10,610 nucleotides of DNA from a virus, in the UHGV virus genome UHGV-0136196. The stretch is one strand, 5' to 3'. Below the pieces are notes generated by a model, which did no database searches, was not told the origin of the DNA, and was given only the letters and a program-made list of their open reading frames with translations. Both the position numbers and the translations under genes were made by a program. Shown here in pieces: positions 1 to 6,482 of the stretch. Within the stretch, counting starts at the first letter, position 1. Every line of letters begins with the position of its first letter.

Positions 1-99
1 ATCATTGAGAACGCCCATAGGAATATCATCAGAAACAACCTCTACTACAGGGAAAAGCTGCATTTGATGCAGGGATTCGCTATTGCTGTTAATCGACAT
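1..99 (-). CDS. Hypothetical protein, N-terminal 33 codons only (gene runs off the window start); sits downstream of cI where lambda has rexA
   Basis: Minus-strand ATG at 99..97, preceded by an AAGGA Shine-Dalgarno-like motif in an AT-rich leader. The reading frame is open to position 1 (MSINSNSESLHQMQLFPVVEVVSDDIPMGVLND...). It does not resemble lambda RexA as I recall it. Absent from the ORF track because it is truncated. Confidence 0.35.
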   Translation of the reverse strand, partial: MSINSNSESLHQMQLFPVVEVVSDDIPMGVLND

Positions 100-185
100 A
101 TCTTAATGATTTCCTTATTTTTATTGTAGGGATCTTCTTTTTTATTTCCTACATCTAGATGCGTATAAAGTCTCTTGCTGCGGAC

Positions 186-932
<747 letters not shown>

Positions 933-999: not shown

Positions 1000-1200
1000 A
1001 TGGAACAACGCATAACCCTGAAAGATTATGCAATACGCTTTGGGCAAACCAAGACGGCTAAAGATCTCGGCGTATATCAAAGCGCGATTAACAAGGCCAT
1101 TCATGCAGGCCGAAAGATTTTTTTAACTATAAACGCTGATGGAAGCGTTTATGCGGAAGAAATAAAGCCCTTCCCAAGTAACAAAAAAACAACTGCATAA
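1000..1200 (+). CDS. cro: Cro repressor
   Basis: The 66-aa translation ([66 protein letters not shown]) is essentially lambda Cro, with a strong RBS upstream. Confidence 0.96.
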
Positions 1201-1657: not shown

Positions 1658-1801
1658 ATGCGAAAAACGCAGGAAAATAAACGCGTTAATCACCGAAAAG
1701 ATGTGCTACGTGACCAGTTTTATCAGGGGGTTAATCCAGCAATAGCTGTGCCACTGAGAGAAATACTTAACAGGTACAAAACTTTGGAGAAGTCAAAATG
1801 A
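1658..1801 (+). CDS. Hypothetical small basic protein (47 aa)
   Basis: ATG at 1658 with a GAGG RBS 8 nt upstream. The stop overlaps the downstream initiator gene start (ATGA at 1798..1801). The longer 1493 start in the ORF track would overlap cII out of frame and is not preferred. Confidence 0.3.
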   Translation: MRKTQENKRVNHRKDVLRDQFYQGVNPAIAVPLREILNRYKTLEKSK

Positions 1802-2595
1802 GCATGAATCTTATGGCTAAGGCCATGAATATAAAGGTTGGCAACCCACTGAGAAAACTGGTTCTGATTAAACTTGCCGATAACGCCAATGATAATGGCG
1901 AATGCTGGCCTTCATATCAACATGTCGCTGACCAGTGTGAGGTGAGCAGATCGACAGTAAAAAGTCACATTAGGGCACTGGAAGAGATGGGGCTTTTGAA
2001 AAGGGAATTCAGAAGAAAAGGAGAGCTTAACCAGTCAAACGTTTTTTATCTGACGCTGGATAATGCACAACAAATCCAACCAGAATCAGGTGGGGCAGGA
2101 GATGCCCGGGGTGGGGCAGGAGCTGCCCGGGGTGGGGCAGGAGCTGCCCTAGGGGGTGGGGCAGGAGCTGCCCCCAGAACCTATCACTCTTTTGAACCAG
2201 TCAATGAACCTAAAAACATTATGTTCGAACATGTCCGAACGGAGTGGGAAAAAACTCCTGACCGTCACGAAGAAACCGACAAGGCATTCGAGGAAATATT
2301 CTGGTGTGCAGGCATGCGGAAAGCCGGGAAGAAAAACGCAGCTTCAGCATTCAGAACACAGTTCAGGGAATGGCGTAAAACTACCAGGGGTACGGCAAGC
2401 GAGTTTGCCACGATGCTGGCAGAAGACATCGCATGCAGGAATGGTAAGCAGTTCGGATTCGACAGGTTGTTACCATCGAGCTACCTGAACGGTCAACGCT
2501 GGAACGACGAGAAGCCAGAAACTATTCAACCACAATCCAAACCATCATCCGCAATCACCGTATCGAAAACTGGCTACGTGTTTTTCGACAGGTGA
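1798..2595 (+). CDS. Replication initiator protein (lambda O-like function; N-terminal helix-turn-helix DNA-binding domain, Gly/Ala-rich linker encoded by iterons)
   Basis: 265 aa with a GGAG RBS upstream. The N-terminal region has an HTH-like segment (SYQHVADQCEVSRSTVKSHIRALEEMGLLKRE). The gene contains a direct-repeat iteron array, as lambda O does, and sits at the O position between cII and the helicase gene. The sequence is not lambda O. Confidence 0.75.
   Translation: MSMNLMAKAMNIKVGNPLRKLVLIKLADNANDNGECWPSYQHVADQCEVSRSTVKSHIRALEEMGLLKREFRRKGELNQSNVFYLTLDNAQQIQPESGGAGDARGGAGAARGGAGAALGGGAGAAPRTYHSFEPVNEPKNIMFEHVRTEWEKTPDRHEETDKAFEEIFWCAGMRKAGKKNAASAFRTQFREWRKTTRGTASEFATMLAEDIACRNGKQFGFDRLLPSSYLNGQRWNDEKPETIQPQSKPSSAITVSKTGYVFFDR
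2089..2175. repeat. Four tandem ~21-bp iterons (GGTGGGGCAGGAGCTGCCCGG-like), putative replication origin embedded in the initiator gene
   Basis: Direct repeats start at 2089, 2110, 2131 and 2155. Each contains an internal inverted repeat (GGGCAG..CTGCCC). A moderately AT-rich stretch follows (2176..2230). This mirrors the lambda ori arrangement inside O. Confidence 0.7.
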
Positions 2596-2598
2596 ACC

Positions 2599-2706
2599 AT
2601 GAAATCCAGAATCAAATCGTTACTTATCGCTGGCTATAACCATGGCTGGCTTAGTTCTGCATTCGTTGAGTTCTGGTTTAACCGTCTCGATCTGAGGTCA
2701 GCGTAA
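2599..2706 (+). CDS. Hypothetical small ORF (35 aa) between the initiator and primase-helicase genes
   Basis: ATG at 2599 with an AGGTGA RBS 5 nt upstream. The stop overlaps the primase-helicase start (TAATG). No recognisable similarity; could be a coupling ORF or spurious. Confidence 0.25.
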   Translation: MKSRIKSLLIAGYNHGWLSSAFVEFWFNRLDLRSA

Positions 2707-4586
2707 TGACTCCAAGTGAACTGAGCGACCTGCTTTGGGCGCAGGTTGACAGGGTGGCTCCGCACCTGTTGCCAAACGGCAAGAAAGAGGGGCATGAGTG
2801 GGTTGCCGGTAATGTCAACGGTGACAAGGGAAACAGCCTTAAGGTCAACCTTAGCGGCAAGAAAAAATGGGCTGATTTCGCCGAGGGAGACGGCGGTGAC
2901 ATGCTTGATTTGTGGATGGCATGTCGTGGAATTAACCTGCATCAGGCTATGCAGGAAGCGAAAGCATTTCTCGGTATCAAGGATGACGATCACCATTTCG
3001 ATGCCAGACGTGAGAAGAAATTCTCCAGACCTGATCGCAAGAAAATCGCCCGCTACGTTACCAGAACAGAATCCCATCTTGAGTACCTGCAATCGCGTGG
3101 CATATCGCCAGAAATCGTAAAGCGCTACGAGGTTGTCAGCGGCAAGGTGTGGAATGGAGAGCGGGAACTGGATGCTCTGGTGATTCCGTACAAACGCGAT
3201 GGTGAGTTGTTGCAGGTCAAGCGAATCAGCACTGAGCGCCCGGACGGGAAGAAAGTCATTATGGCAGAAGGTGATTGCGAACCTTGTCTGTTCGGATGGC
3301 AGGCTCTGGACGCTGGCGTGAGGGCGGTTGTACTTTGCGAAGGCGAAATTGATTGTATGAGCTATGCGCAATACGGCATCTCGGCGTTATCCGTACCGTT
3401 TGGTGGAGGGAAAGGCGCTAAGCAACAGTGGATTGAGTTTGAGTATCACAACCTCGACAGGTTTGAGGAAATATTCATCTCGATGGACGTTGATGATGTT
3501 GGTCGTGAAGCCGCAAGGGAAATCGCAAGCCGACTCGGTGAACATCGTTGCCGTCTTGTTACTCTGCCGTACAAAGACATCAACGAATGCCTGATGAACG
3601 GTGTTACCGAGGATGCAATCTGGCAGTACATCGGCACGGCATCCTACTTTGATCCTGAAGAACTCTACAGCGCGCGAGAGTTTTACCAGGACACTATCAA
3701 CGCTTTCTACGGCAAGCAGCAGTATCTGTTTAATCCACCGTGGGAATCTCTGGCAGATAAATTCCAGTTCCGTGAGGCCGAGTTGACGCTGGTCAATGGT
3801 GTGAACGGTCACGGAAAAACGGAGGTTGTCGGGCATATGGCACTTGAGGCAATGCGTCAGGGTGTGAAGACGTGCATCGCGTCACTTGAGCTGAAGCCTG
3901 GTATTCTCCTTAAGCGCCTTACCCGTCAGGCAACGTGCTGCAAGATGCCGCCAGTGCTGGAAATTGACTCTGCATTTAAATTTTATGACGAAAGACTTTG
4001 GGTGTTTGGCCTGACCGGAACGGCGAAAGCCGACAGGCTGATCGAAATATTCGACTACGCTCGCCGCCGATACGGGATCCAGTTATTCATCATCGACAGC
4101 CTGATGAAATGTGGCATAGGCGACGATGACTATAACGGGCAGAAAGCGTTTGTTGACTCGATATGTGACTTCAAAAATAAAACAAACTCCCACGTCATTC
4201 TCGTTACTCACTCGCGAAAAGGAGACAGCGAAGAAAAACCAACCGGGAAAATGGACGTAAAAGGCTCTGGAGCGATAACAGACCTGACAGACAACCTTTT
4301 CATCATCTGGCGTAACAAGGCTCGCGAGAGAGCGTTACAGAGAGTTCAGAGTGGTGAAAAGATGTCAGAGAAGGACGAACAGCTACTGGCATCTCCGGCA
4401 TCTGTTTTGATGCTTGAAAAACAACGTAACGGCGAAGGTTGGGAAGGTGGTGTCCCGTTGTTCCTTGACGAGCAATCGCACCAGTTCCTGCAACTTGAAT
4501 CAGGATCGCCATATAGCTACATCGCCAATATGCCGAAATCGGAATATGACGAGGCGTGGCGACAGGAAAACGTGACGGAGTATTAA
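2706..4586 (+). CDS. Bifunctional DNA primase-helicase (TOPRIM-type primase domain fused to a DnaB/RecA-like P-loop helicase domain)
   Basis: 626 aa with a GAGG RBS upstream. TOPRIM-like motifs are present (conserved Glu in VVLCEGEIDCMS; DxD in ISMDVDDVGREAA). Walker A is GVNGHGKTEV and Walker B-like is LFIIDSLMK. It occupies the position of lambda P. Confidence 0.85.
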   Translation: MTPSELSDLLWAQVDRVAPHLLPNGKKEGHEWVAGNVNGDKGNSLKVNLSGKKKWADFAEGDGGDMLDLWMACRGINLHQAMQEAKAFLGIKDDDHHFDARREKKFSRPDRKKIARYVTRTESHLEYLQSRGISPEIVKRYEVVSGKVWNGERELDALVIPYKRDGELLQVKRISTERPDGKKVIMAEGDCEPCLFGWQALDAGVRAVVLCEGEIDCMSYAQYGISALSVPFGGGKGAKQQWIEFEYHNLDRFEEIFISMDVDDVGREAAREIASRLGEHRCRLVTLPYKDINECLMNGVTEDAIWQYIGTASYFDPEELYSAREFYQDTINAFYGKQQYLFNPPWESLADKFQFREAELTLVNGVNGHGKTEVVGHMALEAMRQGVKTCIASLELKPGILLKRLTRQATCCKMPPVLEIDSAFKFYDERLWVFGLTGTAKADRLIEIFDYARRRYGIQLFIIDSLMKCGIGDDDYNGQKAFVDSICDFKNKTNSHVILVTHSRKGDSEEKPTGKMDVKGSGAITDLTDNLFIIWRNKARERALQRVQSGEKMSEKDEQLLASPASVLMLEKQRNGEGWEGGVPLFLDEQSHQFLQLESGSPYSYIANMPKSEYDEAWRQENVTEY

Positions 4587-4691
4587 ATGACCATCTACAT
4601 CACTGAGCTAATAGCAGGGTTATCGTTACTAATGGTTCTTACTGTATATATTATTAAGTATATTCTTTATGCGAATAAAAAAACCAATTGA
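4587..4691 (+). CDS. Hypothetical small hydrophobic peptide (34 aa)
   Basis: The ATG overlaps the primase-helicase stop (TAAATG). The translation MTIYITELIAGLSLLMVLTVYIIKYILYANKKTN looks like a single transmembrane helix. Lies in AT-rich DNA, and its 3' end overlaps the HNH gene start. Confidence 0.2.
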   Translation: MTIYITELIAGLSLLMVLTVYIIKYILYANKKTN

Positions 4692-5280
4692 TCACGATGA
4701 GCTTCTGTCAACATTATCATATGACTCAGAAACAGGAATATTTAAATGGCTAAAAACAAATTCAGTAGTAAGAGTAAAAGGTAGTATTGCTGGAGGTGTT
4801 AGTGGTGGTTATATATGCATTAGCATAAATAATGTTTTGTATTATGCGCATAGGCTTGCTTGGTTCTATGTATACAAAAAATGGCCTCCTAAGTTTATTG
4901 ATCATGTAAATGGGAACAGACTTGACAATAGGATTTCAAATCTAAGACTGGCAACAGAGGAGCAGAATGCAAGAAACATTGTAGGTAATAGGTTAAACAC
5001 ATCCGGTGCGATTGGAGTGTCTTGGGATAAGACAACTGGCAGGTGGAAGTCTTATGTTGGTTATAAAAATAAGACAATATCGTTAGGGTATTTCGATAGC
5101 AAAGAAGATGCAGCATTCATAGCAGCACTAGCAAGAAAGAAACTATATGGAACTTATGCGAGTAAAGCACTTAATTGCGAGCATGAGCTTTTATCTCAAT
5201 TTAATAATGATGAGGATAAACTTGCGGAATATCTTAAGGAAAAATCTAAAAGGACTCGAAAGCGTGTTAAAAAAAGATAA
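4669..5280 (+). CDS. HNH family endonuclease with AP2-like DNA-binding domain (homing-endonuclease-like)
   Basis: 203 aa. HNH motif region (IDHVNGNRLDNRISNLRLATEEQN), an AP2-like segment (GVSWDKTTGRWKSYVGYKNKTISLGYFDSKEDAA), and a basic C-terminal tail. The gene is markedly AT-rich compared with its neighbours. Confidence 0.8.
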   Translation: MRIKKPIDHDELLSTLSYDSETGIFKWLKTNSVVRVKGSIAGGVSGGYICISINNVLYYAHRLAWFYVYKKWPPKFIDHVNGNRLDNRISNLRLATEEQNARNIVGNRLNTSGAIGVSWDKTTGRWKSYVGYKNKTISLGYFDSKEDAAFIAALARKKLYGTYASKALNCEHELLSQFNNDEDKLAEYLKEKSKRTRKRVKKR

Positions 5281-5313
5281 AGGCCTGCTGGTAATCGCAG
5301 GCCTTTTTATTTG
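5281..5313 (+). terminator. Intrinsic terminator (tR2-like)
   Basis: Perfect 8-bp stem AGGCCTGC / GCAGGCCT with an 8-nt loop, followed by TTTTTATTT. The sequence matches the lambda tR2 hairpin as I recall it. It sits immediately after the HNH stop codon. Confidence 0.85.
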
Positions 5314-5327
5314 GGGGAGAGTAAATC

Positions 5328-5534
5328 GTGGTTGAGTTGATTTTCTCTGCATTGAGGCTTCTCGGTGCTCTGTGGATGGTGGCGACGTTCATTGTGGTTG
5401 CTGGCTGTTTTGTCCGGTTGGTAGGCGAAGGTAAAGACCTGGTGGGTGTGCTTTTCGGTAGCATTTTCCTGTGGGTGATTATCGGTGTTATGCCTGTCGC
5501 TGTAGCAAAAATGGCGTGGCGTTTTGTGAGTTGA
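5328..5534 (+). CDS. Hypothetical small membrane protein (68 aa, two predicted transmembrane helices)
   Basis: GTG start at 5328 with a GGGGAGAG RBS 6 nt upstream (this RBS resembles the lambda ninB RBS). The translation is strongly hydrophobic (LLGALWMVATFIVVAGCFVRLV ... VLFGSIFLWVIIGVMPVAVA). Confidence 0.5.
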   Translation: MVELIFSALRLLGALWMVATFIVVAGCFVRLVGEGKDLVGVLFGSIFLWVIIGVMPVAVAKMAWRFVS

Positions 5535-5551
5535 ACTGAGGGTAAGTACCG

Positions 5552-5872
5552 ATGGACGAATCAAGAAAGCAGTTTGAAGAAAGCTGGTTGCGACGTGGGG
5601 GCGAATCTTCAGACCTTATCCGTTACCCTGAAAATCACCATGAAATTGGCAGCGGTAATATTGGTGGTCAATACGTGATGGACGATGTTCAAGGCCACTG
5701 GCAAACGTGGCAGGCATCGCGAGCAGCTATTGAAATAACCGCGCCAAAGTTTATCGACAGCAGAGAAGCCTTAGCCAAAGGGTTTACTGTTGATTATTCC
5801 AATGGCTTCGGTGATGCAATGGATGCTTATGAGGAAAACATCCGCGCTGCTGGAATCAAAGTGAAGGAGTGA
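5552..5872 (+). CDS. Hypothetical protein (106 aa, acidic, soluble)
   Basis: ATG at 5552 with a GAGG RBS about 10 nt upstream. Codon usage matches its neighbours. No motif I can assign. The stop overlaps the next ORF. Confidence 0.55.
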   Translation: MDESRKQFEESWLRRGGESSDLIRYPENHHEIGSGNIGGQYVMDDVQGHWQTWQASRAAIEITAPKFIDSREALAKGFTVDYSNGFGDAMDAYEENIRAAGIKVKE

Positions 5873-5874
5873 GC

Positions 5875-6060
5875 ATGAGTCGACGAAGTAGCTTTTTGGG
5901 GTTTGTAATATTCCTGTCCTGCACTGGTTACATCGTAATCTGGTCAATTTCGAACATTGACCGTGGCGGGGAATATCTCATTGTAATGTTCTTTCCTTTG
6001 TTTCTTGGGTGGTACGCCGCAAGGTTGCTGGAAGAATGGGGTTACAGGCATAAAAAATAA
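5875..6060 (+). CDS. Hypothetical small membrane protein (61 aa)
   Basis: ATG at 5875 with an AAGGAG RBS 5 nt upstream (the ORF track starts at an in-frame GTG at 5869). Hydrophobic segments (FLGFVIFLSCTGYIVIW and LIVMFFPLFLGWYAA) are followed by a basic C-terminus. Confidence 0.5.
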   Translation: MSRRSSFLGFVIFLSCTGYIVIWSISNIDRGGEYLIVMFFPLFLGWYAARLLEEWGYRHKK

Positions 6061-6071
6061 AGGAGTATTCA

Positions 6072-6482
6072 GTGAAGCAAACAATCTTCCTCCGAACTAA
6101 GCAACAACAGCAAGCCGCAATAAATGCCATCCTCGCAACACCACTCGATAAAGACAAGCCAGTCACCATCCGCATTACTGACTACAAGCGAAATCTTGAC
6201 CAGAACGCAAAATTTCACGCGATGGTCGCAGATATCGCCAGGCAAGTTCAGTGGCGCGATAAATGGTTAAAACCAGAACAATGGAAGGTTTTGTTGATCA
6301 GCGGTCATGCAGTGGCAACAAAGCAGGAAGCTGATGTTTTGCCCGGGCTTGAAGGCGAATACGTCAACATCCGCGAAAGCAGCGCGCAGATGAGTGTAAA
6401 GCGTATGGCAAGTCTTATCGAGTACACAACAGCCTGGGCTATTGGTCATGGTGTCAGATTTACCGACAGGAGGTACGAATGA
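6072..6482 (+). CDS. ninB: NinB (Orf family recombination mediator)
   Basis: 136 aa. GTG start with a TAAAGGAG RBS. Conserved NinB/Orf motifs relative to lambda NinB are visible (RNLDQN, QVQW..KWL, EQWK), but overall it is divergent from the lambda allele. Confidence 0.75.

Follow-up and report, generated by a model that had tools for sequence, protein, structure and literature searches.

The closest described systems to the locus studied here are the BstA phage defence proteins and the Rex system of phage lambda. The bstA gene lies downstream of the prophage repressor gene, and the lysogen makes the protein (Owen et al. 2021, PMC8585504). On infection by a heterologous phage, foci of BstA form at the replicating phage DNA and replication is blocked; the cell in which the infection was aborted dies without release of progeny (PMC8585504). 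A short DNA element, aba, overlaps the start of bstA, and BstA is suppressed by its cognate aba DNA when this is carried on a replicating element (PMC8585504). With its cognate BstA silenced by aba, the prophage replicates after induction (PMC8585504). Owen et al. mapped aba in a single allele (PMC8585504). The mapped element, aba-BTP1, is 63 bp long, consists of 29 bp upstream of bstA and the first 34 bp of the gene, and acts as DNA (PMC8585504). Its function depends on the direct repeat CCCGCC, one copy of which lies at each end, and is abolished by one G-to-T change in either copy (PMC8585504). Aba elements give no cross-protection between alleles (PMC8585504).

The BstA homologues tested by Owen et al. 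came from BTP1, K. pneumoniae and E. coli NCTC10963 (PMC8585504). The E. coli protein, BstA-Ec (E4V89_RS07420), is 41.7% identical to BstA-BTP1, and bstA-Ec expressed in Salmonella LT2 gave phage defence (PMC8585504). P22 carrying the 1052-bp bstA-Ec locus was immune to BstA-Ec specifically (PMC8585504), therefore the cognate aba must be located within the 1052-bp fragment. Owen et al. located aba-Ec no finer than this (PMC8585504).

In this work we analysed a prophage segment in which bstA appears to occupy the place of the lambda rex genes, with a predicted aba element at positions 71-133; we give this overall explanation a probability of about 0.9.

The open reading frame downstream of cI

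The window, by which we mean the whole stretch of 10,610 nucleotides analysed (UHGV virus genome UHGV-0136196), spans the immunity-to-lysis part of a lambdoid prophage with a mosaic structure; replication, nin, Q and lysis genes follow cro, and there are no tRNA genes. The features at its left end are the following.

1..99, minus strand: 5' part of bstA, 33 codons, bstA-Ec allele type (from the translation; 301 codons in identical loci)
100..185, minus strand: bstA leader, with AAGGA at 116..112 and a cloning-primer match at 185..162
186..899, minus strand: cI repressor of lambda immunity specificity (237 aa, 97.5% identical to lambda cI)
1000..1200, plus strand: cro

The cI gene ends with a TGA at 188..186 of the minus strand. 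After an AT-rich intergenic leader of 86 nt, the ATG at 99..97 is the earliest start past an in-frame TAA (105..103), and it is preceded by the AAGGA, whose end lies 12 nt from the ATG. From here the frame is open for 33 codons, up to base 1, the edge of the window (MSINSNSESLHQMQLFPVVEVVSDDIPMGVLND). An earlier note, made from the window alone, had described this as a well-initiated gene running off the edge, and the gene is real: it is intact in identical loci elsewhere. A consensus scan of the minus strand within 100-185 found neither promoter-like nor terminator-like sites. This is weak evidence; because such sites were absent between cI and bstA, we infer that bstA is co-transcribed with cI from PRM. 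The two genes presumably form an operon, and read-through from PRM/PRE would fit a leader of this kind.

The leader also contains short direct repeats (106-150, minus strand): AATAAAAA occurs twice, 21 nt apart, and AGGAAAT twice, 35 nt apart, the second copy of the latter making up the ribosome-binding site of bstA. The BTP1 leader also has a repeat, CAAGGAAA, with the copies 46 nt apart. Two genes of the replication region deserve mention. The ORF at 1798-2595 (plus strand) encodes a protein of 265 aa with an HTH-type N-terminus and a Gly/Ala-rich tandem stretch (GGAGDARGGAGAARGGAGAALGGGAGAA). The ORF at 4669-5280 (plus strand, 203 aa) comes after a toprim primase/helicase gene (2706-4586) and before the nin region. 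An HNH endonuclease is among the RefSeq features that the matching genomes have under this segment, so that the ORF may represent a mobile element inserted into the replication module.

Identity of the gene

Among 5,426 genomes, positions 1-185 of the window were found with 100% identity in seven complete E. coli chromosomes and with 99.5% identity in three more. They are 98% identical to phage CL707, whose immunity region (EF120459.1) is 98.3% identical to the window over positions 1-899. In all three matching loci inspected (L001, L002 and L092, two of them chromosomal) an intact coding sequence of 301 aa is annotated. The one in L002, which is 100% identical to the window over 1-185, extends from 5194 to 6099 and encodes WP_000026554.1, a protein that RefSeq names 'BstA C-terminal domain-containing protein' or 'hypothetical protein' in the chromosomal loci.

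The earlier note had proposed homology and PADLOC searches with the complete ORF, and these, done with the protein from the identical loci, led to BstA. The full-length protein matched the PADLOC model PDLC02356 (BstA) with an E-value of 1.3e-105 (residues 8-286, profile positions 4-281 of 292) and PHROG 6287, 'BstA abortive infection system, replication inhibitor', with an E-value of 6e-133. By BLASTP it is 42% identical to BstA-BTP1 over residues 2-300 (E 5e-84). Even the 33 amino acids visible in the window gave a single PADLOC match, BstA, with an E-value of 0.0015 at profile positions 3-29. Local scans of the full-length protein against Pfam-A (E up to 0.1) and NCBIfam matched no family, and precomputed tables assign PF26567 (BstA_C) to every homologue; the local Pfam-A copy is probably older than the PF26567 model. 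A PDB sequence search with the full-length protein gave nothing meaningful, the best hit being an 'Abi family protein' with an E-value of 0.47. Judged by the similarity to full-length profiles and the homology to BstA-BTP1 across both halves, the protein is a member of the BstA family.

The location of the gene, directly downstream of the prophage repressor and on the same strand, is also that of bstA, and the order repressor, bstA, N is common to the relatives. In CL707 a Timm-like terminator comes after the corresponding ORF, CL70704, and then oL and N. What is expected after the 906-nt bstA ORF is a hairpin (CCCGGCATCTGCGCCGGG) with a T-run, and then oL. We are highly confident that the gene following cI is bstA, which belongs to the BstA family and encodes an abortive-infection defence consisting of a single protein.

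Because the window shows 33 codons only, the intactness of bstA is deduced from the identical loci. It is conceivable that in the source genome the gene is truncated or inactivated past the window edge and encodes nothing functional. The window does end at codon 33, partial or fragmentary members of the cluster exist in databases, and CL707 has an IS10 near, though outside, the ORF. Against this, the coding sequence was intact in every matching locus inspected and the exact protein is present on 645 contigs, which makes truncation very improbable.

An AlphaFold model is available for a related protein, P0002, which over residues 9-301 shares 93% identity with the window-type protein. The model (mean pLDDT 84) agrees modestly with the KilA-N-like assignment that Owen et al. 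gave to the N-terminal domain of BstA (PMC8585504), and adds little to it. For the C-terminal half of the model no strong match was found.

Replacement of rexAB

Lambda and other imm-lambda phages align with the window only between 179 and 899, the homology stopping 7 nt past the cI stop codon. This point defines the right boundary of the bstA cassette.

178..179, no strand: right boundary of the bstA cassette (end of lambda homology)

In L002 the homology to lambda restarts 11 nt beyond the bstA stop (5183/5184), at lambda position 35826, the end of rexB. Since the homology breaks at both edges, a cassette of approximately 995 bp cleanly replaces rexAB (1.4 kb) between cI and Timm. The suggestion of the earlier note that this slot would hold a defence gene other than RexA was therefore correct, given the full-length match to BstA.

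A divergent RexA-like exclusion protein was considered and dropped. Its sole support is the position in the rex slot. A tblastn search with the full-length protein in 50,697 phage records, several lambda records among them, matched 13 records, none of them lambda; the DNA homology to lambda is gone 7 nt after cI, and the BstA models are matched end to end. We consider a RexA-like identity practically discounted.

Relationship to the tested allele bstA-Ec

The 3' part of the primer NW_761/NW_764, GTCCGCAGCAAGAGACTTTATACG, with which Owen et al. cloned bstA-Ec (PMC8585504), matches the window exactly at 185..162, and the match begins at the first base past the cI stop. The reverse primer for bstA-Ec matches L002 exactly, and the amplicon predicted from the two is 1052 bp, equal to the length of the NCTC10963 fragment in PMC8585504. 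Furthermore, strain 2012C-4431, which is in the homologue table of PMC8585504, is 99.5% identical to the window over 1-185 and encodes the same protein. Because the primers match exactly, the amplicon length is equal and the 2012C-4431 protein is the same, we regard the window as carrying the 5' end of a bstA-Ec-type locus. The allele type would be bstA-Ec of NCTC10963, presumably identical to it residue for residue. The gene, which the earlier note had called unknown, is thus not novel: it has been named bstA, and the bstA-Ec type has already been characterised experimentally (PMC8585504). The sole new element in our analysis is the predicted position and architecture of aba-Ec.

A predicted aba element in the window

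On the minus strand the hexamer ATCCCT occurs as a direct repeat at 133-128 and 76-71, 57 nt apart, straddling the start codon of bstA. The features derived from it are the following.

71..133, minus strand: predicted aba-Ec, 63 bp bounded by ATCCCT (from the position and spacing of the repeat compared with aba-BTP1)
128..134, minus strand: first copy of the predicted aba repeat (GATCCCT, with a GATC site), located in untranslated leader sequence (repeat scan)
71..77, minus strand: second copy of the predicted aba repeat (AATCCCT), in bstA codons 8-10 (repeat scan)

This is the only such pair in the window, and none was found in 200 shuffles. The segment overlaps the start codon and has terminal direct repeats, in other words it has the hallmarks of aba at the level of a sequence signature. 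The position of the repeat also agrees with that in BTP1. Distances were taken to a conserved reference point, the MGVL codon (18..16 in the window): the start of copy 1 precedes it by 115 nt in BTP1 as in the window, and the start of copy 2 by 59 nt in BTP1 and 58 nt in the window. Copy 2 falls within coding sequence, which we counted against the prediction. The residues encoded at copy 2 are predicted to be disordered (pLDDT <50, model residues 1-13) and vary within the family.

In the coding region of bstA, at 72..58 (minus strand), we noticed a hairpin resembling a terminator (CTGCATcaaATGCAG, then CTTTTCC), whose first base lies 1 nt inside the end of copy 2. It was set aside as a terminator; it is weakened or absent in relatives, and because of this lack of conservation we think that it is probably a chance feature.

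Could the ATCCCT pair also be a chance repeat, with the true aba of this bstA lying elsewhere in the locus or having another form? The repeat is only 6 nt long and lies within an AT-rich leader, and in the locus of the window 6 of 91 spacings score as high, so the repeat is weak by itself. In addition, the repeat contains one mismatch (GATCTCT instead of GATCCCT) in two close relatives, L004 and L005, L085 shares ATCCC only, and the mapping by Owen et al. stops at 1052 bp. On the other hand, the placement of copy 1 relative to the MGVL codon and the nearly equal spacings (57 and 56) in the window and BTP1 speak against chance, and relatives retain an imperfect repeat of 7-10 nt at the same two positions.

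Direct repeats across the bstA family

Because a 6-nt repeat is weak evidence on its own, the idea was tested across the bstA family. The sample consisted of 79 bstA loci, one genome per species, and 10 close relatives obtained by exact protein look-up; the 160 nt before the MGVL codon were scanned for repeats at spacings of 20 to 110. Exact repeats of at least 6 nt had a spacing of 56 in 18 and of 57 in 7 of the 45 non-redundant loci, while every other spacing was found in 0-4 loci. When mismatches were tolerated, 32 of 53 non-redundant loci had a repeat at 56/57, compared with 2.7 loci on average and 8 at most in 200 trials with shuffled sequences. It must be noted that the scanned loci are related, hence these are not independent observations, and that approximately 40% of the loci lack a clear 56/57 repeat. 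In BTP1 the pair recovered by the scan was the published, mutationally essential CCCGCC repeat. The repeated words differed between groups.

Alphaproteobacteria: TTGGTCACC, GAGCACC, CACCACC
Klebsiella type (L091): AGAACAGCT
L016: GATCGCCA
Yersinia nurmii (L006): GATCCC
Second common E. coli allele (L089, L090): GATCGC

Between copy 1 and the start codon there are 8-46 nt in most loci, and between the start codon and copy 2 there are 11-49 nt; the two distances add up to 56/57. Since this sum is constant while the start codon shifts, what is conserved is the spacing and not the position relative to translation signals.

In eight enterobacterial loci (L004, L006, L016, L083, L084, L086, L087 and L089) both repeat copies open with GATC; in these loci the spacing is 57 nt (56 in L016) and copy 1 lies exactly 116 nt before the MGVL codon. 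In the window GATC is present in copy 1 (131-134), copy 2 has AATC (74-77), and in BTP1 neither copy has it. GATC in both half-sites was therefore rejected as a rule, the window allele type having AATC in copy 2 and BTP1 having none. As both half-sites usually start with GATC in the enterobacterial alleles, Dam methylation or the replication state of the DNA could affect recognition.

The recurrence of the 56/57 spacing in 32 of 53 loci, against 2.7 in shuffles, is the reason why we predict that positions 71-133 of the window are aba-Ec. That this segment is a functional aba-Ec seems to us probable, and it is somewhat less strongly, although still on balance favourably, that we judge the wider proposal, namely that aba is a family-wide bipartite site with allele-specific half-sites 56-57 bp apart across the start codon, aba-Ec of the window being one example. 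A chance repeat, which would not be expected to peak at 56/57 alone across the family, is the less likely explanation, with perhaps less than half the weight of a functional element. In the literature searched we found no report of a family-wide aba pattern or of an aba mapped in other alleles.

A natural recombinant

Residues 1-110 of the protein P0002 (locus L093) are exactly those of the second E. coli allele, while over residues 94-301 only three positions distinguish P0002 from the window-type protein. From this pattern it follows that P0002 is a natural recombinant with a crossover between residues 94 and 110, and that a protein cluster made at 90% mixes alleles with different predicted aba elements. 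The leader of P0002 bears the repeat type of the second E. coli allele. As leader and repeats are of the type of the second allele, the leader, aba and the N-terminal domain appear to move together, which is only weakly informative because physical linkage alone predicts joint movement.

Possible mechanism

A scheme consistent with these data is as follows. In the lysogen bstA would be transcribed together with cI from PRM, and the 63 bp at 71-133, bounded by ATCCCT with 57-nt spacing, would serve as the aba of the window allele. Its repeat would be one case of the family-wide bipartite site with half-sites 56/57 bp apart. The bipartite site is probably read by the N-terminal winged-helix/KilA-N-like DNA-binding domain; if so, binding of two DNA sites by this domain may be the off-switch. 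Our literature search found no later mechanistic work on BstA or KilA-N. The earlier note had suggested looking for any partner gene of the ORF. Instead of a second gene, the predicted partner is a short DNA element that overlaps the start codon and is located inside the window.

It can be asked whether the main role of the gene in the lysogen is phage defence at all, or rather lysogenic conversion or an effect on virulence, as was first proposed for st313-td/bstA in Salmonella. Earlier reports of a virulence or anti-virulence role of bstA are cited in Owen et al. (PMC8585504), and the BTP1 gene is still labelled st313-td in one record. A self-immunity element is, however, hard to explain without a phage-directed activity, and we find such a main role highly unlikely and retain phage defence.

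Significance and comparison with known systems

The locus clearly illustrates how another abortive-infection system can fill the rex slot in a prophage of lambda immunity. For annotation, the gene should be called bstA (BstA-Ec type) and not hypothetical. The predicted self-immunity element falls entirely inside the window. Our results suggest that aba might be located in any bstA locus by a simple rule, namely to look for a direct repeat 56/57 bp apart over the start codon. If confirmed, this rule would make it possible to predict, for each BstA prophage, the BstA proteins to which it is immune, and it would provide a defined DNA ligand for the biochemistry of the BstA switch-off.

It is useful to compare the locus with its relatives. 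CL707 is said to have been sequenced first by Degnan et al. in 2007, among imm-lambda wild phages. Its ORF CL70704 encodes an identical 301-aa protein and the order cI, ORF, Timm, oL, N is also the same; unlike the gene here, which we label BstA, CL70704 is annotated merely as a hypothetical protein.

With the BstA-Ec locus the window shares the primer-covered leader, the 1052-bp amplicon and the 86-nt gap after the repressor stop, and the identity of BstA-Ec to BstA-BTP1 is about the same as that of the window-type protein (42%). To the right of cI, in contrast, the window has a different mosaic as its prophage backbone. In BTP1, similarly to the window, a single gene directly follows the repressor and a hexamer direct repeat straddles the start codon. 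The two differ in the repeated word (ATCCCT in the window, CCCGCC in BTP1), in the spacing (57 and 56, respectively) and in the distance between AAGGA and ATG (12 nt and 7 nt), and the window has a leader longer by 6 nt and an N-terminus shorter by two codons.

In lambda the slot between cI and the Timm terminator is occupied by RexAB, likewise an abortive-infection system expressed in the lysogen, but one without sequence similarity to BstA. Rex consists of two proteins, whereas BstA consists of one protein and a DNA element. The modes of action are also different: BstA blocks phage DNA replication, while RexB is reportedly a membrane ion channel triggered by RexA.
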